A program made the position numbers and the translations under genes. Positions 3,260 through 13,764 of a DNA stretch of 23,892 bases are shown here, piece after piece (position 1 is the first letter of the stretch; the number at the start of each line of letters is the position of its first letter). This DNA comes from Gemmatimonadota bacterium (GTDB lineage: Bacteria > Gemmatimonadota > Gemmatimonadetes > Gemmatimonadales > GWC2-71-9): the NCBI GenBank assembly GCA_003221005.1, contig QHTZ01000015.1, positions 1-23,892 of the forward strand, given 5' to 3'. The notes under the pieces were generated by a model. The model had not been told where the DNA came from, searched no databases, and was given only the letters and a program-made list of their open reading frames with translations.

Positions 3260-3856
3260 ATGCGCCCCTACGACGAACGCCTCGATCACCTCCTCGCCCA
3301 GGCCGCCCGGGTGTTCGCCGACAAAGGCTACCACTCGACCACCATGCGCGACCTCGCCGCCGCGAGCGGGATGTCCCTCGCCGGGATGTACTACTACGTA
3401 CGCGGCAAGGAAGAGCTGCTGGCGAAGATCCAGGAGCGCTGCTTCACACGGGTGCTCGAGGGCGCGGAGCGGGCGGTCGCGGCCCGGACCGGCGACCCGG
3501 TGGAGCGGCTGCAGGCGTTCATTCGGCACCACGTCACCTTCTTCGCCGCGCATATGCCGGAGATGAAGGTGCTGTCGCACGAAGCCGCGTCGCCCACGGG
3601 GGAGCGGCTGCGCCGCATCGCCACCATCAAGCGCCGCTATGTCGACCTGCTGGAGGGCCTGCTGCGCGAGGCGGCGCCCGACGAGACGCCGGTGGATCGG
3701 AGCGCGGCGGCCTACATCCTCTTCGGCATGATGAACTGGATCTACAACTGGTACCACCCCGCGGGGGAGATCGACCCGGAGCGCCTCGGCGCGCTGATCG
3801 CCCGCATCTTCCTCGGCGGCTTCGTCGAGGCGCGATCCCCGGTACATGGAGGCTGA
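3260..3856 (+). CDS. TetR/AcrR family regulator (PaaR/KstR2-like)
   Basis: HTH AARVFADKGYHSTTMRDLAAASGMSLAGMYYY..GKEELL; C-terminal FGMMNWIYNWY, typical of acyl-CoA-sensing TetRs. Confidence 0.92.
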   Translation: MRPYDERLDHLLAQAARVFADKGYHSTTMRDLAAASGMSLAGMYYYVRGKEELLAKIQERCFTRVLEGAERAVAARTGDPVERLQAFIRHHVTFFAAHMPEMKVLSHEAASPTGERLRRIATIKRRYVDLLEGLLREAAPDETPVDRSAAAYILFGMMNWIYNWYHPAGEIDPERLGALIARIFLGGFVEARSPVHGG

Positions 3857-3862
3857 TGTCTC

Positions 3863-4678
3863 ATGGCGACCCTGACCGAACCCAAGGCCGAACGCAGGAC
3901 GCTGGTGCATTACATGGTCGAAGGCGGTGTCGCGATCCTCGAGCTCGACGATCCCCCCGCCAACACGTACACCTACGAGATGATGCGCCAGCTGGACGAG
4001 GCGATCCTCCAGGCGCGCTTCGATGACAACGCGCACGTCCTGATGGTGCGCGGGCATGGTGAGAAATTCTTCTCCGCGGGCGCGAACATCGCCTATCTCA
4101 ACAGCATCACGCCACGCTACAAGTACTTCTTCTGCCTGCACGCGAACGAGACACTGAACCGCCTCGAGCAGACCCCCAAGCTGACGATCGCGGCGCTGAA
4201 CGGGCACACCGTGGGGGGCGGGCTCGAGATCGCTATGGCGTGCGACATCCGGCTCGCGAAGGAGAACGCCGGGAAGATCGGACTCCCCGAGGTGAACCTG
4301 GGCGTGCTCCCGGGCACCGGCGGCACGCAGCGGCTCGCGCGCATCATCGGGAAGCCCCGGGCGATCGAAATGATGGCGAAGGGGGAGACGTTCTCGTTCG
4401 ACAAGGCGAAGGAGCTGGGCATCGTGAACGAGGTGTTCCCGGCCGACGACTACTGGGACCAGATCATGCTCTACGCGAAACAGTTCTGCCCGCCGCACAA
4501 GGCGGCGAAGGCGGTGGGACTGATCAAGCGCGCGGTCCAGTCGGGCGCCGAGGTGCCGTTCGAGTCGGGTCTCGCGCTCGAGCGCGAGCTGCAGCAGCAG
4601 CTGTTCCAGAGCGACGACGCGAAGGAAGGGATCGCAGCATACGTCGAGAAGCGGGTGGCGGAGTTCAAGGGGAAGTGA
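3863..4678 (+). CDS. Crotonase-family protein resembling the catalytic domain of BoxC
   Basis: FFSAGANI, KYFFCLHANETLN, GGGLEIAMACD and LPEVNLGVLPGTGG. Both crotonase Glu residues are present. GGAGG RBS. Confidence 0.85.
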   Translation: MATLTEPKAERRTLVHYMVEGGVAILELDDPPANTYTYEMMRQLDEAILQARFDDNAHVLMVRGHGEKFFSAGANIAYLNSITPRYKYFFCLHANETLNRLEQTPKLTIAALNGHTVGGGLEIAMACDIRLAKENAGKIGLPEVNLGVLPGTGGTQRLARIIGKPRAIEMMAKGETFSFDKAKELGIVNEVFPADDYWDQIMLYAKQFCPPHKAAKAVGLIKRAVQSGAEVPFESGLALERELQQQLFQSDDAKEGIAAYVEKRVAEFKGK

Positions 4679-6102
4679 GAACCGATCTGCTGATCGGCGG
4701 GGAGTGGCGGGCGGGCGCCCGGCGCTATTGCCTGACGAACCCCGCCACCGAAGAGACGCTCGCCGAGGTGGGCGAGGCGGGCGAAGCGGAGATCGACGCG
4801 GCGGTGCGGGCAGCGCGCGCCTGCTTCGAGGCAAAGGAATGGCGCGAGCTGTCGGCGCGCCGGCGCGGTGCCCTGCTCTTCCGGCTCGCGGACCTGCTCG
4901 AGGAGCGATCTCAGGAGATCGCCGAAGTCGAGACCCGGAACAACGGCAAGCCGCTGTTCGAGTCGAAGATCGACGTCGCGATGGCGGTCGAAACCTTCCG
5001 GTACTACGGCGGCTGGGCCGACAAGCTCACGGGCGACACGCTCCCGGTGAGCGGCAACTTCTTCACCTACACGCTGCGCGAGCCCGTGGGCGTGGTGGGC
5101 GCGATCGTGCCGTGGAACTTCCCATTGAACCTCGCCGCGTGGAAGGTCGCGCCGGCGCTCGCCGCGGGATGCACCGTGGTGCTGAAACCGGCGCATGAGA
5201 CACCTCTCACCGCGCTGCTCCTGGGTGAGCTCGCGCTCGCGGCGGGCTTCCCCGCAGGTGCCCTCAATGTGGTTCCCGGCCCGGGCCCTACGGCCGGCGC
5301 CGCCCTGGTGCGCCATCCCCTCGTGGACAAGATCGCGTTCACCGGGTCCACCGAGGTGGGCCAGTGGATCATGCGGGAGGCCGCCGGCACGCTCAAGCGC
5401 GTCACCTTGGAGCTCGGCGGTAAGAGCCCCAACATCATCTTCGCCGACGCGGATCTCGCGGCCGCCGTGCGCGGCGCGCAGAGCGGGATCTTCTACGGTA
5501 AGGGCGAGGTGTGCGCTGCGGGGTCGCGCCTCCTCGTCGAGCAGTCGGTTCACGACCAGGTGGTGAGTGAGCTCGCCCAGCGTGCGAAGAAGCTTGTCCC
5601 GGGCGATCCTTTCGACAAGAACACCCGTCTCGGCGCCATCGTGTCGAAACAGCAGCAGGAGAAGGTGCTCTCCTACATCGCCGCCGGGGAGCAGGCAGGG
5701 GCGCGCCTAGTGGCTGGAGGGAAGGCCGCGAAGGTGAACGGCAAGGGCTACTTCGTCGAGGCCACCGTGTTCGACGGGGCGCAGCCGGGGATGAAGATCG
5801 TGGACGAGGAGATCTTCGGCCCGGTCCTGTCCGTGCTCACGTTCGCGGGCGAGGAGGAAGGCATCGAGCTCGCCAATCGCTCGATGTACGGGCTTGCGGC
5901 CGGCATCTGGACGAAGGACGTCCAGAGGGCGCACCGCGTAGCGCGTGCCATCAAGGCGGGGACGGTATGGGTGAACACCTACAATTTCTACGACCCGGCG
6001 GCGCCGTTCGGCGGTTACAAGTTCTCGGGGTTCGGGCGGGATCTGGGGAAAGAGGCGCTGAAGAACTATACGGAAGTGAAGACGGTGTGGGTCGGGCTAT
6101 GA
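4675..6102 (+). CDS. NAD(P)-dependent aldehyde dehydrogenase (BoxD-like by context; 475 aa)
   Basis: PWNFP, FTGSTEVG, LELGGKSP, GEVCAAGSR, EEIFGPV, PFGGYK; GTG start overlapping the upstream TGA. Confidence 0.93.
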   Translation: MRTDLLIGGEWRAGARRYCLTNPATEETLAEVGEAGEAEIDAAVRAARACFEAKEWRELSARRRGALLFRLADLLEERSQEIAEVETRNNGKPLFESKIDVAMAVETFRYYGGWADKLTGDTLPVSGNFFTYTLREPVGVVGAIVPWNFPLNLAAWKVAPALAAGCTVVLKPAHETPLTALLLGELALAAGFPAGALNVVPGPGPTAGAALVRHPLVDKIAFTGSTEVGQWIMREAAGTLKRVTLELGGKSPNIIFADADLAAAVRGAQSGIFYGKGEVCAAGSRLLVEQSVHDQVVSELAQRAKKLVPGDPFDKNTRLGAIVSKQQQEKVLSYIAAGEQAGARLVAGGKAAKVNGKGYFVEATVFDGAQPGMKIVDEEIFGPVLSVLTFAGEEEGIELANRSMYGLAAGIWTKDVQRAHRVARAIKAGTVWVNTYNFYDPAAPFGGYKFSGFGRDLGKEALKNYTEVKTVWVGL

Positions 6103-6105
6103 CTG

Positions 6106-6133
6106 GATGCGGGATGCGGGATGCGAGATGCGG
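6106..6133 (+). repeat. 4 x 7-bp tandem repeat GATGCG(G/A)
   Basis: Units at 6106, 6113, 6120 and 6127, between the ALDH stop and the thiolase start. Confidence 0.9.
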
Positions 6134-6136
6134 TCC

Positions 6137-7329
<1,193 letters not shown>

Positions 7330-7330
<1 letters not shown>

Positions 7331-8085
7331 TGGCCGCCTATGAGCGGGTGCTGATCGCGATGGAGAACGGCGTCGCCACGGTGACGCTGAACCGTCCCGA
7401 GAAGCTCAACGCCTTCGACCGCGACTCGTGCGCGGAGCTGCTCGAGGGCCTGCGGATGGTGGCGCGGTCGGAAGCGGTGCGCGTGATCGTGCTCACGGGC
7501 GCCGGGCGCGGGTTCTGCGCCGGCGCCGACCTCAGCGTGCTGGCGGAAGATGGCGCGGCGCTCGTGGCGGCGGGGCGCGACATCGCGCTCACCATCCGCC
7601 ACGCACCGCAGCCCGTAATCGCGTCCGTGAACGGGCCGGCGGCGGGGGGCGGCGCGAACCTCGCGCTCGCGTGCGACTACCGCATCGCATCGGAGCGCGC
7701 ATCGATCGGCCAGGTGTTTCACAAGCTGGGCCTCGCTCCCGATTGGGGCGGCAGCTTCTTCCTGCCACGCTTGGTGGGTACGGGCCGGGCGCTCGAGCTG
7801 GTATGGAGCGCCCGCATGGTGGACGCGAGCGAAGCCGCGCGCCTCGGCCTGTTCGATCGTGTCGTGTCCCACGAGACGCTGCAGCAGGAGACGCGGCGGC
7901 TCGCCGAGCTGTGGGCGGGCCAGCCGCCCCTGGCCGTGCGGAGCGCCAAGGAAGCCGTCTACCGGAGCGGCGAGAGCTCGCTCGCGGCCACGCTCGATCT
8001 CGAGATCGCGCTGCAGCAGCAGCTCTTTGCCAGCGCCGACGCGCGGGCGCGCATCGGCGCGGCGCGCGAGCAGAGGAGTCACTGA
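7330..8085 (+). CDS. Enoyl-CoA hydratase/isomerase, PaaG-like (251 aa)
   Basis: TLNRPEKLNA, FCAGADL, GGGANLALACD, GLAPDWGGSFFLPRLVG. Has the Asp-type site and lacks the two Glu residues. TGATG overlap. Confidence 0.85.
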
Positions 8086-9218
8086 TGGTACGGAAACTGG
8101 GCAACTTCGACGACTGGATCGACTATTTCCGCTACTGGCAGGAGTCGATCGGCCTGCCTCAGGGCGAGCTGCGGGACTTCAAGTTCGAGGCCCAGTTCGG
8201 GGACCAGGACGTCCCCATCATCGAGTTCGGGCATTATAAAGGCCAGCGCAAGTGGCCGACCGTGATGCACATCCCCGACCAACGCATCCGCGACGCCCTG
8301 CTCAACCTGATCGTGTACCAGGGCGATACGGAGTTCGCCTCGGTGGAGCAGCAGCGCAGCCTGCTCACGCATGCGCCCTCCGATTACGACCTGCTGGCGC
8401 TCCAGCGCGTGATGACCGAGGAGATGCGGCACGGGTGGCAGATGTCGTACCTCTTGTGCACGCACTTCGGGGACGAGGGCAGGCGCGAAGCGGCGAAACT
8501 GCTCGAGCGCCGTGCCGACGAAGGGGAGCGCCTGCTCGGCTCGTTCAACGAGCTGGTGGACAACTGGCTCGACTTCTTCACCTACACCCAGTTCATCGAC
8601 CGCGACGGCAAGTTCCAGCTCACCATGCTCTCCGTGTCGGGGTTCGATCCGCTGTCCCGCTCGATGACCCCGATGCTCAAGGAGGAGTCGTTCCACCTGG
8701 GCACGGGGAACAACGGCCTGTTGCGGATCGCGAAGGCGGGGAAGATGCCGCCCGAGCTGATCCAGAAGTTCTTCTACAAGTGGATCCCGACGGCGTTCGA
8801 CCTGTTCGGCACCGACAACTCGTCGTCCGCCCACTGGGCGTACGTGTGGGGGCTCAAGGGGCGCTACGACGAGCGGGACAATCAGGTGGAGCCCGACAAG
8901 GCAAAGCTCAACGAATACAGCCGCGAGCTGTACCGTCAGGAGATCTCGAAGCTCGTCGAGCGGCTCAACATGTTTATCCCCGAGCGCGAGCGGCAGCTCA
9001 AGGTCCCCGTGACGCAGTTCAACCGCAAGATCGGCGTCTACGCCCACCAGCGGTACACGGTGGACGGAGAGCCGGTCGACGATCCGGCGAAGTACCAGGC
9101 GTACCTGGCCACGGTGCTGCCCCAGGCCGCGGACTATCAGCGGGTGCACGACATCGAGAAGGAGCCGGACTGGATCGAGCCGAAGAAGGCCGACAGCCTG
9201 CTCAAGCCATCGGCGTGA
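8085..9218 (+). CDS. boxB: BoxB-like diiron aromatic-CoA epoxidase, short form (377 aa)
   Basis: QGDTEFASVEQQ, APSDYD, EEMRH, DRDGKFQL, SGFDPLSR and EESFH follow the BoxB motif order, with two ExxH diiron motifs. GAGGAG RBS and TGATG overlap. Substrate is unproven. Confidence 0.82.
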   Translation: MVRKLGNFDDWIDYFRYWQESIGLPQGELRDFKFEAQFGDQDVPIIEFGHYKGQRKWPTVMHIPDQRIRDALLNLIVYQGDTEFASVEQQRSLLTHAPSDYDLLALQRVMTEEMRHGWQMSYLLCTHFGDEGRREAAKLLERRADEGERLLGSFNELVDNWLDFFTYTQFIDRDGKFQLTMLSVSGFDPLSRSMTPMLKEESFHLGTGNNGLLRIAKAGKMPPELIQKFFYKWIPTAFDLFGTDNSSSAHWAYVWGLKGRYDERDNQVEPDKAKLNEYSRELYRQEISKLVERLNMFIPERERQLKVPVTQFNRKIGVYAHQRYTVDGEPVDDPAKYQAYLATVLPQAADYQRVHDIEKEPDWIEPKKADSLLKPSA

Positions 9219-9219
9219 T

Positions 9220-9906
9220 GTGACCGCGCTCGTGATCGCGCACCGCGGCGCGTCGGGCTACGAGCTGGAGAACTCGCTCGCCGCCTTCCGCGCCGCCGGG
9301 CCGAAGGGCGCCGATGCCGTTGAGCTGGACGTGCACTCCACCACGGACGGCGCCCTGTTCGTGCACCACGACGACGCCCTCGACGGATCGCGCCGCATTC
9401 CGCAGCTGACGCGCGAGCAGGCCCGCGCGTTCCGCCTGGCGAACGGAGAGCCGCTGCCGCTGCTGGACGAGGCGCTCCAGGCGGCCGGCACGCTCCGCGT
9501 GTTCGTCGAGGTGAAGAGCCTCGACCCGCGCTTCGACGATCGGCTGCTCGCCGCGCTCGAGCGGGGCCCCAACCCTTCGGGCTACGCAGTCCACTCCTTC
9601 GATCACCGCGTGGTTCAGCGGCTCGGTAGCAGGCGCCCCGCCCTGCCCCGCGGCGTGCTCTCTGGGAGCTACCCCGTGCGCCCGCTGGCGCCACTGCACG
9701 ACGCCGGAGCGACCACCCTGTGGCAGGAGCGGTCGCTCGTGGACCGCGCCCTCGTCGATCTGATGCACGGGGCGGGGTGCCAGCTGCTGGTCTGGACCGT
9801 GGACCAGCCGGCGGAAATGGAGCGGCTGCTGTCGCTCGGCGTGGACGGGCTCTGCACGAATTTTCCCGACGTCGGCCGGCGCGTGGTGGATCGGTTCGCC
9901 GCATGA
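9220..9906 (+). CDS. Glycerophosphodiester phosphodiesterase family protein
   Basis: IAHRGASG, ENSLAAF, VELDVH, VHHD, VEVK, WTVD, GVDGLCTN. Confidence 0.9.
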   Translation: MTALVIAHRGASGYELENSLAAFRAAGPKGADAVELDVHSTTDGALFVHHDDALDGSRRIPQLTREQARAFRLANGEPLPLLDEALQAAGTLRVFVEVKSLDPRFDDRLLAALERGPNPSGYAVHSFDHRVVQRLGSRRPALPRGVLSGSYPVRPLAPLHDAGATTLWQERSLVDRALVDLMHGAGCQLLVWTVDQPAEMERLLSLGVDGLCTNFPDVGRRVVDRFAA

Positions 9907-10760
9907 GCGCGCCCCGGGTCGCCGTGATCGGCGCGGGCACGATGGGCCACGGCATCGCCTACGTCGCGGCGCTCGCGGGGTGCGACGTCAGGCTCACCGA
10001 CAGCCGCGCCGATGCGCTCCCACTGGCGCTGGACCGGATCACCGGGCTGTTGGCCGGCGCCGTGCAGCGCGGCAAGCTCACCGCCGACGAGCGGGCGGCC
10101 GTCGCCAGGCGCGTCCGGGGCGACGCCGCGCTCGGCCTCGCCGTCGCTGATGCGGGTGTTGTGATCGAGGCTGTGGTCGAGGACCTGGGCGTCAAGCAGG
10201 CGCTGTTTCGCGAAGTCGAGCACGCGGCACCGCGTGACGCGCTGCTCGCGACGAACACCTCCTCCCTCTCCATCGCCGCCATCGCGGGCGCCGTCCGCGA
10301 CCCCGCCAGAGTGATCGGCATCCATTTCTTCAACCCGGTACACGCGATGAAGCTCGTCGAGATCGTGACGCACCCGAGGCTGGGACATGGCGCCCTCGAT
10401 CGGGCGATCGCGCTCGCGCGGCAGCTCGGCAAGGAGCCGATCGTGGTGAAGGACTCGCCCGGGTTCGCCACGAGCCGGCTGGGCATCTTGCTTGGTCTCG
10501 AGGCGATGCGGATGGTCGAGGAAGGCGTGGCCTCGGTCGAGGACATCGACAAGGCGATGGAGCTGGGCTACAACCACCCGATGGGCCCGCTCAAGCTGTC
10601 GGACCTGGTCGGGCTCGACGTGCGGCTCGCGATCGCCGAGACGTTGCACCAGGCGCTGGAGGAGCCGCAGTTCCAGCCGCCGCGCATCCTGCGCGACAAG
10701 GTCGCGAAGGGCGAGCTCGGGAAGAAATCGGGGAAGGGCTTTTATGTGTGGGGCGGTTAG
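9903..10760 (+). CDS. 3-hydroxyacyl-CoA dehydrogenase (285 aa)
   Basis: VIGAGTMGHGIA, IEAVVE, TNTSSL, HFFNP, HPMGPL..DLVGLD; ATGA overlap. Confidence 0.93.
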   Translation: MSAPRVAVIGAGTMGHGIAYVAALAGCDVRLTDSRADALPLALDRITGLLAGAVQRGKLTADERAAVARRVRGDAALGLAVADAGVVIEAVVEDLGVKQALFREVEHAAPRDALLATNTSSLSIAAIAGAVRDPARVIGIHFFNPVHAMKLVEIVTHPRLGHGALDRAIALARQLGKEPIVVKDSPGFATSRLGILLGLEAMRMVEEGVASVEDIDKAMELGYNHPMGPLKLSDLVGLDVRLAIAETLHQALEEPQFQPPRILRDKVAKGELGKKSGKGFYVWGG

Positions 10761-11623
10761 TGGAGCGATTCAGCCGTATCACCGACGTCCACATTCACGT
10801 GCAGCCGTGGCGCGAGCTCAAGCCCGCGGTGCTCGACGTGATGCGCCGCGGCAAGGAAGCCGACTGGGACGTGCTGCTCCAGCTCATGGACGACCCGGCC
10901 GCTCTGCTCGAGCTGATGGACCGGGCCGGCGTGTGGCGCGCCGGCCTCGTGAACTACCCCGCGCCCGACGTCATGGGCTTCACCGACGCCGCCAACGCGT
11001 TCGCCGCCCGCTACGCGGAGGCGAACCGCGAGCGGCTGCTGCCGTACGGCGGCGTGCATCCCCGGTTCACCCGTGATCCCGCGGGCGACGTGGACCGGCT
11101 GTTCGAGCTCGGGATCCGCGTCCTCAAGCTGCACCCCCCGCACCAGTTGTTCCCCGCGAACGCCTACACCGGGGGACTCGACGCGCTGGGAACGATCTAC
11201 CGACGCGCCGAGGAGCGCGGCTTGCCGGTGATGGTGCATACCGGAACGAGCGTCTTCCCAGGGGCGCGTGCCAAGTACGGCAACCCGCTGGAACTCGATG
11301 ACGTGGCGGTCGACTTTCCCGATCTCACGCTGCTGATGGCCCACGGCGGCCGGCCCCTCTACATGGAGGAGGCGTTCTTCGTCCTGCGCCGGCACAAGAA
11401 CGTGTGGCTCGACGTATCCGGGATTCCGCCGGCGAAGTTGTTGCAGTACTTTCCGCGACTCTCCGAGCTCGCGGACCGGGCGCTGTGGGGGACCGATTGG
11501 CCCGGACCGGGGGTGCGGGACATGAAGCAGAACATCGAGCAGTTCGCGACGCTCCCGCTCTCGGACGCTCACCGCAAGGCGATTCTCGAGACCAATGCGC
11601 TGGCTGTGCTTCCTCCTCGCTAG
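10760..11623 (+). CDS. Amidohydrolase_2 family metal-dependent hydrolase/decarboxylase
   Basis: DVHIH, KLHPPHQ, VMVHTG, MAHGG, WGTDWP; TAGTG overlap. Confidence 0.85.
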   Translation: MERFSRITDVHIHVQPWRELKPAVLDVMRRGKEADWDVLLQLMDDPAALLELMDRAGVWRAGLVNYPAPDVMGFTDAANAFAARYAEANRERLLPYGGVHPRFTRDPAGDVDRLFELGIRVLKLHPPHQLFPANAYTGGLDALGTIYRRAEERGLPVMVHTGTSVFPGARAKYGNPLELDDVAVDFPDLTLLMAHGGRPLYMEEAFFVLRRHKNVWLDVSGIPPAKLLQYFPRLSELADRALWGTDWPGPGVRDMKQNIEQFATLPLSDAHRKAILETNALAVLPPR

Positions 11624-12350: not shown

Positions 12351-12384
12351 CGTGACCGGACTCCCACAACGGAGTGGACATCTG

Positions 12385-13764
12385 ATGCCGCGACGCGCGC
12401 TCATTGCTGTTTCGGTCAGTCTCGCGCTGTGTCTCGCGCCCGGTGGACTAGTCTGCCAGACGGCAGGCCAGATCAACTACGCCACGTTCACGCTGCCGAA
12501 CGGCCTGCGGGTGATCTACGCGGAGGATCACACCACGGCGGTCGTGTCGGTGGACCTGTGGTACAACGTGGGATCGCGTAACGAGCGCCCCGGCCGCTCC
12601 GGGTTCGCGCATCTGTTCGAGCACCTCATGTTCGAGGGATCGGCGCATGCGCCCAAGGGGCTGCACTCGCACTTGATCGAAAGCGCCGGCGGGCAGGACA
12701 ACGCTTCGACCGCCGAGGACCGCACCAACTTCTACGCGACCGTCCCCTCGAACTACCTGAACGTCGTGCTGTGGCTCGAAGCGGACCGCATGCGCTCCCT
12801 CACCGTGACCGACGAGACGTTCCACAACCAGCGGGAGACCGTGAAGGAGGAGCGCCGGCTCCGGGTGGACAACGAGCCCTACGGCGAGCTCTTCGCCGAC
12901 GGGCTGACCTGGCCGTTCGACAGCGCGACGTGCTTCCCTTACGCGCACAGCGTCATCGGCTCGATGGCGAACCTGAACGCGGCCACGCTCCCGGACGTGA
13001 GGCAGTTCTTCGAGACCTACTACGCGCCCAACAACGCCACGCTCGTCGTGAGCGGCGACTTCCGAGTGGTGGAACTGCGGCGTCTCGTGAACCAGTACTT
13101 CGCCGGCGTGCGCGCGCACCCGACGCCACCCCCGATCGCGTGCGAGTACCGGCTCTCGCCCGGTCCCCAGCACCGCACGCTGACCGACCGCCACGCCAAT
13201 CTCCCTGCGGTCGTGCGGATGTACCGCGTCCCGCCGCACGACGACCCCGACACGCCCGCGCTCGGGCTCCTCAACATCATCCTGGGCGACGGGGAGAGCT
13301 CGCGCCTGAACGTGGCGGTGGTGCGGCGGGAAAAGGCCGCGCTCGGCGTGCAGGTGATGATCAACCCCTACGACGTGCGGCGCGGCCCCGGGGTGCTGCT
13401 TGTCCTCGGAATCGCGAACCAGGGGGTCGATCCGGCGAAGCTCGACTCCTTGCTGGCCCGGGAGGTGGACAGCATGCGCACCACGAACGTGGCGCCGGAG
13501 GAGCTCGAGAAGGCCAAGAACCTGTTCCGCGCCGACTTCGTCCGCACCCGCGAGACCTCACTCGGACGCGCGGAAGAGCTCCAGCACTACCAGATGTTCC
13601 ACCGCTCGCTCGCCGAGATTAACACTGATCTCGATCGCTATCTCGCCGTTACGGCGGACGACATCCGGCGCGTCGCCGGCAAGTACCTCGACGCGGTCAA
13701 TGCGGTGGACGTGATCGTGCGGCCGGGAGCGGGTGGAGCAAAGTCGACGGGAGGTGGCGAATGA
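12385..13764 (+). CDS. M16B zinc peptidase, catalytic subunit
   Basis: LPNGLRV, WYNVGSRNE, HLFEH (HxxEH), VKEERR, YYAPNNA; signal peptide. Alternative start is GTG 12352. Confidence 0.92.
   Translation: MPRRALIAVSVSLALCLAPGGLVCQTAGQINYATFTLPNGLRVIYAEDHTTAVVSVDLWYNVGSRNERPGRSGFAHLFEHLMFEGSAHAPKGLHSHLIESAGGQDNASTAEDRTNFYATVPSNYLNVVLWLEADRMRSLTVTDETFHNQRETVKEERRLRVDNEPYGELFADGLTWPFDSATCFPYAHSVIGSMANLNAATLPDVRQFFETYYAPNNATLVVSGDFRVVELRRLVNQYFAGVRAHPTPPPIACEYRLSPGPQHRTLTDRHANLPAVVRMYRVPPHDDPDTPALGLLNIILGDGESSRLNVAVVRREKAALGVQVMINPYDVRRGPGVLLVLGIANQGVDPAKLDSLLAREVDSMRTTNVAPEELEKAKNLFRADFVRTRETSLGRAEELQHYQMFHRSLAEINTDLDRYLAVTADDIRRVAGKYLDAVNAVDVIVRPGAGGAKSTGGGE

Follow-up and report, generated by a model that had tools for sequence, protein, structure and literature searches.

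The window analysed here is a stretch of 23,892 nt from a Gemmatimonadota bacterium (GCA_003221005.1, contig QHTZ01000015.1, positions 1–23,892 of the forward strand), with a G+C content of ~69%. Open reading frames (ORFs) and profile matches outline one tightly packed plus-strand operon at 3260–11623, the second gene of which, ECH1, encodes a stand-alone crotonase that by its sequence shares ancestry with the catalytic N-terminal domain of BoxC. On balance, and by a narrow preponderance of the evidence, ECH1 is read here as a putative ring-opening hydrolase acting after an epoxidase. The genes of the operon are, in order:

3260–3856, plus strand: TetR-family regulator, first gene of the operon (Pfam TetR_N and TetR_C_24).
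3863–4678, plus strand: ECH1 (P0001), FCLHANETL-subfamily crotonase with a single domain, related to the BoxC N-domain and a candidate ring-opening hydrolase.
4675–6102, plus strand: aldehyde dehydrogenase (ALDH; Pfam Aldedh, E 1e-181).
6107–7330 (start codon approximate), plus strand: thiolase resembling 3-oxoadipyl-CoA thiolases of the PcaF/PaaJ type (NF006551, TIGR02430).
7330–8085, plus strand: ECH2 (P0003), PaaG-type crotonase of the isomerase type (PaaG model TIGR02280 and alignment).
8085–9218, plus strand: short BoxB-like di-iron oxygenase (P0004), 377 amino acids (TIGR03225, PDB 3per).
9220–9906, plus strand: glycerophosphodiester-phosphodiesterase-family (GDPD) protein (Pfam GDPD, E 2e-34).
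9903–10760, plus strand: 3-hydroxyacyl-CoA dehydrogenase with a probable PaaH-like role (Pfam 3HCDH_N and 3HCDH; PRK08268, 302 bits).
10748–11623, plus strand: Amidohydrolase_2-family protein (Pfam Amidohydro_2, E 4e-35).

The ECH1 reading frame has an ATG start with a GGAGG motif ~10 nt upstream, encodes 271 amino acids and ends in TGA, and its membership of the crotonase superfamily is evident from the match to Pfam ECH_1 (PF00378, E 2.2e-52, 178 bits, residues 20–270). An initial annotation of the locus, made from the sequence alone, had described it as a BoxC-like ring-cleaving crotonase. All of the elements on which that description was based are present, i.e. ANTY (residues 33–36), ARFD (51–54), GANI (73–76) and KYFFCLHANETLN (87–99), together with two catalytic-type Glu residues, E122 in GGGLEIAM and E143 in LPEV. 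Both Glu residues align to those of canonical hydratases as well as of BoxC, are invariant in 33 ECH1 orthologs, and presumably correspond to Glu144 and Glu164 of rat enoyl-CoA hydratase (rat ECH). As the same annotation had anticipated, public records name the relatives of ECH1 (at least 82% identity) enoyl-CoA hydratases. A representative search showed that the motif KYxFCLHANETL defines a subfamily with both GANI- and GADI-containing members. Its FC...NET core is also present in PDB 2ppy, and it is kept in ECH1 orthologs whatever the operon context. Thermus and Haladaptatus plasmid crotonases located beside Paa-like clusters (39–42% identity) lack FC...NET, and were therefore not counted as members of the ECH1 subfamily.

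BoxC, the 2,3-epoxybenzoyl-CoA dihydrolase, turns 2,3-epoxybenzoyl-CoA into 3,4-dehydroadipyl-CoA semialdehyde plus formate, and is known from Burkholderia/Paraburkholderia and Azoarcus. The references used here were the RefSeq boxC product of Mycetohabitans rhizoxinica, a 566-residue BoxC from Nonomuraea, the BoxC of a Rokubacteria metagenome-assembled genome (MAG; 924 bits) and PDB 2w3p. These proteins span 556–566 amino acids and consist of two crotonase halves, in agreement with the earlier statement that canonical BoxC is about twice as long as ECH1 (556 vs 271 amino acids). The N-half motifs that the initial annotation had given, GANI, NSY, IRFE and KVNFCKFTNETRN, were likewise correct: NSY, IRFE, (F/C)SAGANI and KVNFCKFTNETRN are seen in both the M. 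rhizoxinica protein and 2w3p. The counterparts in ECH1 are ANTY, ARFD, SAGANI and KYFFCLHANETLN, and these are also common to 2ppy-like single-domain crotonases. According to the account in PMC4498308, only the N-domain of BoxC has an active centre, its two Glu residues occupy the same positions as those of PaaF, and BoxC, which co-purifies with BoxB, relieves BoxB of product inhibition.

The similarity of ECH1 to BoxC is concentrated in the N-half. In a BLASTP comparison ECH1 matched the BoxC N-half with 38% identity over 167 residues (93 bits, E 1e-25) and the C-half with 23% identity (30 bits). Aligning profiles to each half, a check proposed in the initial annotation, gave the same preference, as hhalign scored the 33-ortholog ECH1 profile at 194 against the N-half (E 5e-29, 35% identity) and at 61 against the C-half. 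A control profile built from the canonical hydratases of the same operons reached 155 against the N-half, with 28% identity. The BoxC model TIGR03222 ranked ECH1 first of the four genome crotonases that it matched (79.7 vs 43.5, 33.3 and 29.3 bits). A reciprocal PDB search linked both proteins to the same structure: the top match of ECH1 was 2ppy (238 bits, E 1e-69), which was also the best non-BoxC match of the BoxC N-domain (84 bits, with the runner-up at 67.5). In a careful tree of 39 rows the BoxC N-domain and the ECH1 family fell into a 22-row clade with support 99/96, with canonical hydratases, the ECH3 hydratases of sister operons and PaaG-like proteins outside; this set was obtained from a quick tree of 50 rows by dropping 14 rows (fragmentary, of odd composition, very long-branched, and some redundant) and adding 3. 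The quick tree likewise placed the BoxC N-domain among the FC...NET crotonases. By the reciprocal PDB search, the profiles and the trees, the single-domain crotonases most closely related to the BoxC N-domain are thus those of the ECH1 subfamily.

Compared with BoxC as represented by 2w3p and TIGR03222, ECH1 shares the two-Glu crotonase domain and the motifs NxY, (A/I)RF(D/E), SAGANI and K..FC...NET.N at 35–38% identity across ~170–190 residues, and in Methylomirabilota it also shares the position of its gene directly 5' of a BoxB-type oxygenase gene. However, BoxC has ~555 amino acids and a second, non-catalytic crotonase domain, and carries GGGYE where ECH1 has GGGLE, whereas ECH1 is also found in operons with Paa-type oxygenases. 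The structure 2ppy, an 'Enoyl-CoA hydratase' by its deposit title, resembles ECH1 in having a single domain (265 amino acids), KxxFCLxxNETL and both Glu residues, but has GADI instead of GANI; no paper naming it was found in a literature search. Judged by its single domain of 271 amino acids in place of the ~550-residue two-domain architecture, and by a TIGR03222 score far below the cut-off, ECH1 is not a BoxC. The proposal of a stand-alone BoxC catalytic domain consequently holds in part: the kinship to the N-half over the C-half and the best BoxC-N score in the genome bear it out, and membership of BoxC itself fails.

A family of two-domain crotonases of 430–475 amino acids was also observed (P0136, P0143, P0156, P0167, P0170, P0175–P0177 and P0208; L162:2425–4011 and L163:5658–7052). 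Their active N-domain, with GGVNI and both Glu residues, shares ~42% identity with ECH1; the second is a degenerate copy of a crotonase domain and ends in the C-terminal helices of ECH1. These proteins resemble BoxC in architecture, yet in the tree they form the sister group of the ECH1 family (92/90). At L163 a divergent 391-residue BoxB-like gene and a flavoprotein gene lie 3' of the two-domain crotonase, and at L162 flavoprotein genes and a benzoate-CoA ligase family gene. A metagenome scan with an alignment yielded 3 usable two-domain loci among 80, and a scan with P0136 alone yielded none.

The oxygenase of the window operon matches the BoxB model TIGR03225 with 221 bits over profile positions 85–255 of 471, and PDB 3per with E 1e-50. 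Its E..EXXH-type motifs are invariant across 33 orthologs, and its ATG shares 1 nt with the stop codon of ECH2. The pairing of this short BoxB with ECH1 was followed in a second phylum, that of the Rokubacteria MAG, here read as Methylomirabilota, using a sample of 201 genomes. Matches to P0004 occurred in 129 of these, mostly canonical BoxB at 44–53% identity over the core, and a full-length short BoxB (56–76% identity to P0004) in 12. An ECH1 ortholog (63–72% identity) lay immediately 5' of the short BoxB on the same strand at 10 of 12 loci, with gaps, where measured, of 1, 1, 8, 9 and 97 nt; both exceptional loci belong to a single genome, G156, whose ECH1-type gene sits on another contig. 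ECH1 thus has a BoxB-type oxygenase as neighbour in both settings, within the same operon in the window and directly downstream in Methylomirabilota, and the order ECH1 → short BoxB is the same as that of boxC → boxB.

At the genome level, single-domain matches to the BoxC model below its cut-off (69–90 bits) were found in 12/12 genomes with a short BoxB vs 1/189 others (G193), as determined by scoring the six best candidates per genome. Canonical BoxC exceeded the cut-off in 113 of the 201 genomes, and 11 of the 12 short-BoxB genomes were without canonical BoxB and BoxC; the twelfth, the Rokubacteria MAG G001, holds both systems. Three of the genomes counted here (G030, G059 and G102, all on the canonical side) are flagged as unpublished. 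The co-occurrence with short BoxB that had been suggested as a check is therefore plainly seen, at the level of genomes as well as of adjacent genes. A predicted complex of ECH1 and short BoxB, modelled with two alignments, gave 0.00, 0.38 and 0.18 in separate runs vs a mark of 0.32, and weighs neither way.

The surroundings of the Methylomirabilota pair differ from those in the window. No homolog of the ALDH, the thiolase, ECH2, the dehydrogenase (HBD), GDPD or the amidohydrolase was found in the flanks, of which <1 kb to ~9 kb were available. A benzoate-CoA ligase family gene lies 3' of the module in 4/4 annotated loci (647–693 bits vs a cut-off of 375), and the TetR gene is conserved 5' of ECH1 in the loci of both phyla. 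In 2/4 annotated loci a 4-hydroxybenzoyl-CoA-reductase-like molybdenum (Mo) enzyme is located near the module, with an alpha subunit at 852–893 bits vs a cut-off of 995. At L132:12370–16573 separate genes for the 2Fe-2S, alpha and FAD subunits of the Mo enzyme adjoin a TetR–ECH1–short BoxB–ligase module, and at L133:12018–15909 its FAD subunit and a 925-residue alpha subunit are annotated beside such a module; both loci thereby combine a dehydroxylase of 'anaerobic type' with a ring oxygenase that depends on oxygen. In G001 (L041:8242–9933) the short-BoxB reading frame has 563 amino acids, extending ~190 residues past the usual end, in a context unlike the others (Zn-dependent dehydrogenase, ECH1, KAS III-ACP fusion), and the genome also has a canonical boxC–boxB pair.

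Among species genomes, the top 80 loci for short BoxB comprised 79 from Gemmatimonadota and the one from the Rokubacteria MAG. An ECH1 ortholog (at least 69% identity) was present in 61 of them, and in the remaining 19 the contig stops before the expected place of ECH1. ECH1 was followed by the operon ALDH in 60 of the 80 loci, the MAG locus having ECH1 without ALDH. As these loci largely represent one inherited operon, they say little alone. More informative for distribution was a sample of 151 Gemmatimonadota genomes, in which canonical BoxC with BoxB occurred in 1 and short BoxB in 33. By our own reading, an ECH1-type single-domain match of at least 69 bits occurred in 67 (including the unpublished G298), among them 32 of the 33 short-BoxB genomes; the exception, G243, has its short BoxB on a short contig. 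The ECH1 type without short BoxB was found in 35/151 genomes, and the tie of ECH1 to BoxB-type oxygenases is thus not exclusive.

Twelve of these 35 genomes were inspected. An ECH1 ortholog (63–76% identity) heads the same lower-pathway operon in 12/12, with ALDH directly 3' in 11/12. The oxygenase check covered five of them. In three genomes of the window's family (G260, G240 and G313) the window operon recurs minus short BoxB, with PaaA-/PaaC-like genes directly 5' of ECH1; in G260 the order is PaaA-, PaaD- and PaaC-like, each under its cut-off. In the other two (G334 and G272), PaaA/C-like genes are located elsewhere in the genome. The core ECH1–ALDH–thiolase–isomerase–dehydrogenase is thus conserved, and the oxygenase is either short BoxB or PaaA/D/C-like. 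Since FC...NET is kept in every context, the same cassette appears to work with either type of oxygenase. Taken on sequence and gene context, ECH1 most likely acts directly after an aryl-CoA epoxidase, i.e. short BoxB here and PaaA/D/C-like enzymes in sister lineages.

The conserved core could also be explained without any part for aromatic rings: the operon would serve general beta-oxidation of fatty acids or dicarboxylates under a TetR resembling FadR, with short BoxB a late insertion of unrelated role. The TetR weakly matches Bacillus FadR (46 bits), the ALDH is of a generic type, and f7-type genomes have the ECH1–ALDH–thiolase–HBD core without an oxygenase nearby. However, 2/2 f7 genomes checked have PaaA/C-like genes elsewhere, and two different aryl-CoA-type oxygenases take the same operon place in sister lineages. 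The thiolase is nearest 3-oxoadipyl-CoA thiolases (NF006551, 539 bits with a cut-off of 605; TIGR02430, 537 bits with a cut-off of 597), the operon includes a PaaG-type isomerase, and ECH1 adjoins benzoate-CoA ligase family genes in another phylum. A beta-oxidation unit of this kind is accordingly considered improbable.

The isomerase just mentioned, ECH2, bears on a further proposal of the initial annotation, namely that ECH1 and the crotonase at 7330–8085 form a split BoxC, a heteromer in which ECH2 stands in for the non-catalytic C-domain. Both genes share one operon, BoxC itself has two crotonase halves, and E. coli PaaF and PaaG were deposited together as PDB 4fzw. ECH2 is nevertheless not degenerate. 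It has neither catalytic Glu and carries the Asp of the PaaG-type GLxPD motif (GLAPD), and is therefore assigned as an isomerase, with PaaG TIGR02280 as its best NCBIfam match (196 bits, cut-off 345). Against BoxC it matches the N-half alone (45 bits, residues 20–152), the C-half match being not significant. Furthermore, ECH2 is absent from the module in 10/10 Methylomirabilota loci with the ECH1–short BoxB pair, its slot is empty in f7-type Gemmatimonadota operons, and the natural two-domain relatives carry a degenerate second copy rather than a PaaG-like protein. The split arrangement is hence highly improbable, and this part of the initial annotation is set aside.

The most serious competitor of the hydrolase reading is that ECH1 is an ordinary (S)-specific enoyl-CoA hydratase, a PaaF analogue acting on 2,3-dehydroadipyl-CoA, in which case the ring would be opened by something else and the likeness to BoxC would reflect shared ancestry. 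Several observations weigh against ring opening by ECH1 in this respect. Overall, ECH1 is nearer to ordinary hydratases than to BoxC: it scores 215 bits with PRK07658, 187 with 5zai (3-hydroxypropionyl-CoA dehydratase), ~138–139 with rat ECH and 138 with PaaF (4fzw_A), and BoxC is absent among the best 60 of its 219 PDB matches. By sequence it retains every ordinary-hydratase feature. The match to TIGR03222 covers profile positions 43–227 of 548 at 79.7 bits vs a cut-off of 712.3, and the 11- and 4-residue insertions of BoxC are missing. GANI varies within the subfamily, close relatives having GADI (N75 → D), and the profile margin of ECH1 over the canonical hydratases (194 vs 155) is modest. 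In the tree the BoxC N-domain lies within an 18-row clade at only 93/88 and on a very long stem (1.84), and no exact sister is singled out for it. ECH1 is thus nearer to the BoxC N-domain than ordinary crotonases are, yet still an outlier with respect to BoxC.

The operon and the genome add to these points, alongside the occurrence of ECH1 without short BoxB. The window operon has two crotonases, while the pathway also needs a hydratase, and ECH1 could be that lower-pathway hydratase. The ALDH does not belong to the BoxD/PaaZ type. It matches best StyD-like (566 bits with the best NCBIfam model, under the cut-off of 850) and class-1/2 ALDHs, with 120 bits against the PaaN/PaaZ model (cut-off 563), and could serve a step before the pathway, with a free aldehyde as substrate. 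Finally, the window genome yielded neither a CoA ligase above its cut-off, nor PaaK, nor an oxygenase reductase.

For the hydratase explanation specifically, all top family and structure matches of ECH1 are hydratases (PRK09674 169 bits, 4fzw_A 138), both Glu residues stand in hydratase positions, and ECH1 orthologs also occur in operons without short BoxB. The window operon has isomerase, dehydrogenase and thiolase, but no second two-Glu crotonase. ECH1 indeed resembles PaaF and the canonical hydratases in fold, length, both catalytic Glu residues and neighbours (isomerase, dehydrogenase, thiolase); these enzymes differ from it in being without FC...NET and in falling outside the ECH1/BoxC-N clade in the trees. 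Likewise, no curated hydratase model reaches its cut-off with ECH1, the PaaF model PRK09674 giving 168.8 bits against 371. The alternative oxepin-CoA hydrolase model NF046063 is not reached either (120.4 bits, cut-off 300), and ECH2 scores higher with it (151). A reading of ECH1 as the cyclohexa-1,5-dienecarbonyl-CoA hydratase Dch (TIGR03189) was rejected: at 54.7 bits (cut-off 292.5) it scores below the five other crotonases of the genome.

The division of labour among crotonases argues against the hydratase explanation. Where a sister operon has three crotonases, these are ECH1, an isomerase of the PaaG type and ECH3/ECHx, a two-Glu hydratase of canonical type (GGGCELA...GQPEI) that is ~50% identical to a separate enzyme of the window genome, here named the C118 enzyme. 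As an isomerase and a more canonical hydratase are already present in these operons, ECH1 is left for a third function. In Methylomirabilota, moreover, the partners of ECH1 are short BoxB and a benzoate-CoA ligase, lower-pathway genes being absent from the available flanks, and the genomes lack BoxC (11/12). In the window genome, which is 94% complete, neither a canonical BoxC nor a BoxA nor a PaaZ-type fusion was found, none of its crotonases exceeds the NF046063 cut-off, and no ring-opening hydrolase other than ECH1 was recognisable. An ordinary hydratase role is therefore regarded as unlikely, though clearly less so than the other alternatives. Because ECH1 prefers the N-half, has the best BoxC score of its genome and co-occurs with short BoxB, neither of the outcomes that the initial annotation had named as refuting its BoxC-like interpretation was observed, and that interpretation is supported in part.

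In the favoured reading of ECH1 as a ring-opening hydrolase, the crotonase oxyanion hole together with E122 and E143 would add water to a non-aromatic epoxide or oxepin CoA-ester. Ring opening would give a CoA-semialdehyde, and a benzoyl-CoA-derived substrate would lose formate, as with BoxC. The aldehyde would then be oxidised by the translationally coupled ALDH, whose GTG start overlaps the ECH1 stop codon (GTGA) and whose role as semialdehyde dehydrogenase is suggested by gene position only. ECH2, a canonical hydratase (ECH3 in sister operons, the C118 enzyme in the window genome), the 3-hydroxyacyl-CoA dehydrogenase and the 3-oxoadipyl-CoA-type thiolase would complete the conversion to succinyl-CoA and acetyl-CoA. 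The substrate may be benzoyl-CoA, phenylacetyl-CoA or another aryl-CoA; this choice, the ring-opening chemistry, the formate release, the part played by the ALDH and the electron donor of short BoxB are what we infer beyond the observed kinship, gene neighbourhoods, distribution among genomes, conservation of the catalytic residues and absence of a recognised ring-opening hydrolase from the genome.

A more far-reaching version is put forward tentatively, and is judged somewhat less probable than its being wrong in some part. Here the FCLHANETL crotonases would be an ancestral single-domain BoxC and a general ring-opening hydrolase for aryl-CoA epoxides. Paired with short BoxB, they would make up a minimal set of two proteins able to dearomatise and cleave the ring without BoxA or the second BoxC domain. 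The same enzymes would also serve PaaA-type epoxidases and so fill the oxepin-CoA hydrolase gap where PaaZ is absent, and the 430–475-residue two-domain relatives would represent a second, independent route to a BoxC-like architecture.

Three further observations concern the surroundings. Within the window's family the GDPD and Amidohydro_2 genes always form part of the operon, whether or not short BoxB is present. An Amidohydro_2 homolog, 36% identical, lies directly 3' of canonical boxC in Nonomuraea (L090:12901–13743), where a 322-residue protein with no Pfam match is encoded between boxB and boxC (L090:10221–11189), at the place where others have boxA beside boxB. Downstream of the operon, the window has a 470-residue ORF at 12352–13764 with an HxxEH-type motif (HLFEHLMFEG) as in M16 zinc peptidases, as read from the translation alone.

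Aerobic CoA-dependent 'hybrid' pathways (Box and Paa) are known from a few Proteobacteria, and to our knowledge their ring-opening step has been credited to three enzymes alone: BoxC, the PaaZ hot-dog domain and a crotonase family with genetic backing. The literature searched yielded no account of a short-BoxB/ECH1 system. By its sequence ECH1 represents a new variant among crotonases of the ring-opening/hydratase kind, and its gene is tied genomically to short BoxB or, in other lineages, to oxygenases of the PaaA type. Price et al. 2022 (PMC9007349) provide genetic support for another single-domain crotonase family as oxepin-CoA hydrolase, and point out that where the PacL-type dehydrogenase is free-standing the hydrolase had yet to be identified. 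That family (NF046063; H281DRAFT_04594 of Paraburkholderia bryophila) is a separate subfamily from ECH1. Its assignment is backed by fitness data, whereas the role of ECH1 is proposed from sequence; its logic nonetheless parallels that of ECH1 with a free ALDH.

Should ECH1 be only a hydratase, the finding would shrink to a remark on how BoxC evolved, and the ring-opening enzyme that goes with short BoxB would have to be sought elsewhere. If ECH1 is instead the ring-opening hydrolase, a direct test of the role of the second BoxC domain would become possible, and software that predicts pathways could use ECH1 as a marker of benzoate- and phenylacetate-type catabolism. The short-BoxB/ECH1 system is probably a previously unstudied, stripped-down pathway for aromatic acids; on that reading, abundant and mostly uncultured soil phyla, Gemmatimonadota and Methylomirabilota, would degrade these compounds with a much simpler enzyme set, which current annotation hides under the name 'enoyl-CoA hydratase'.

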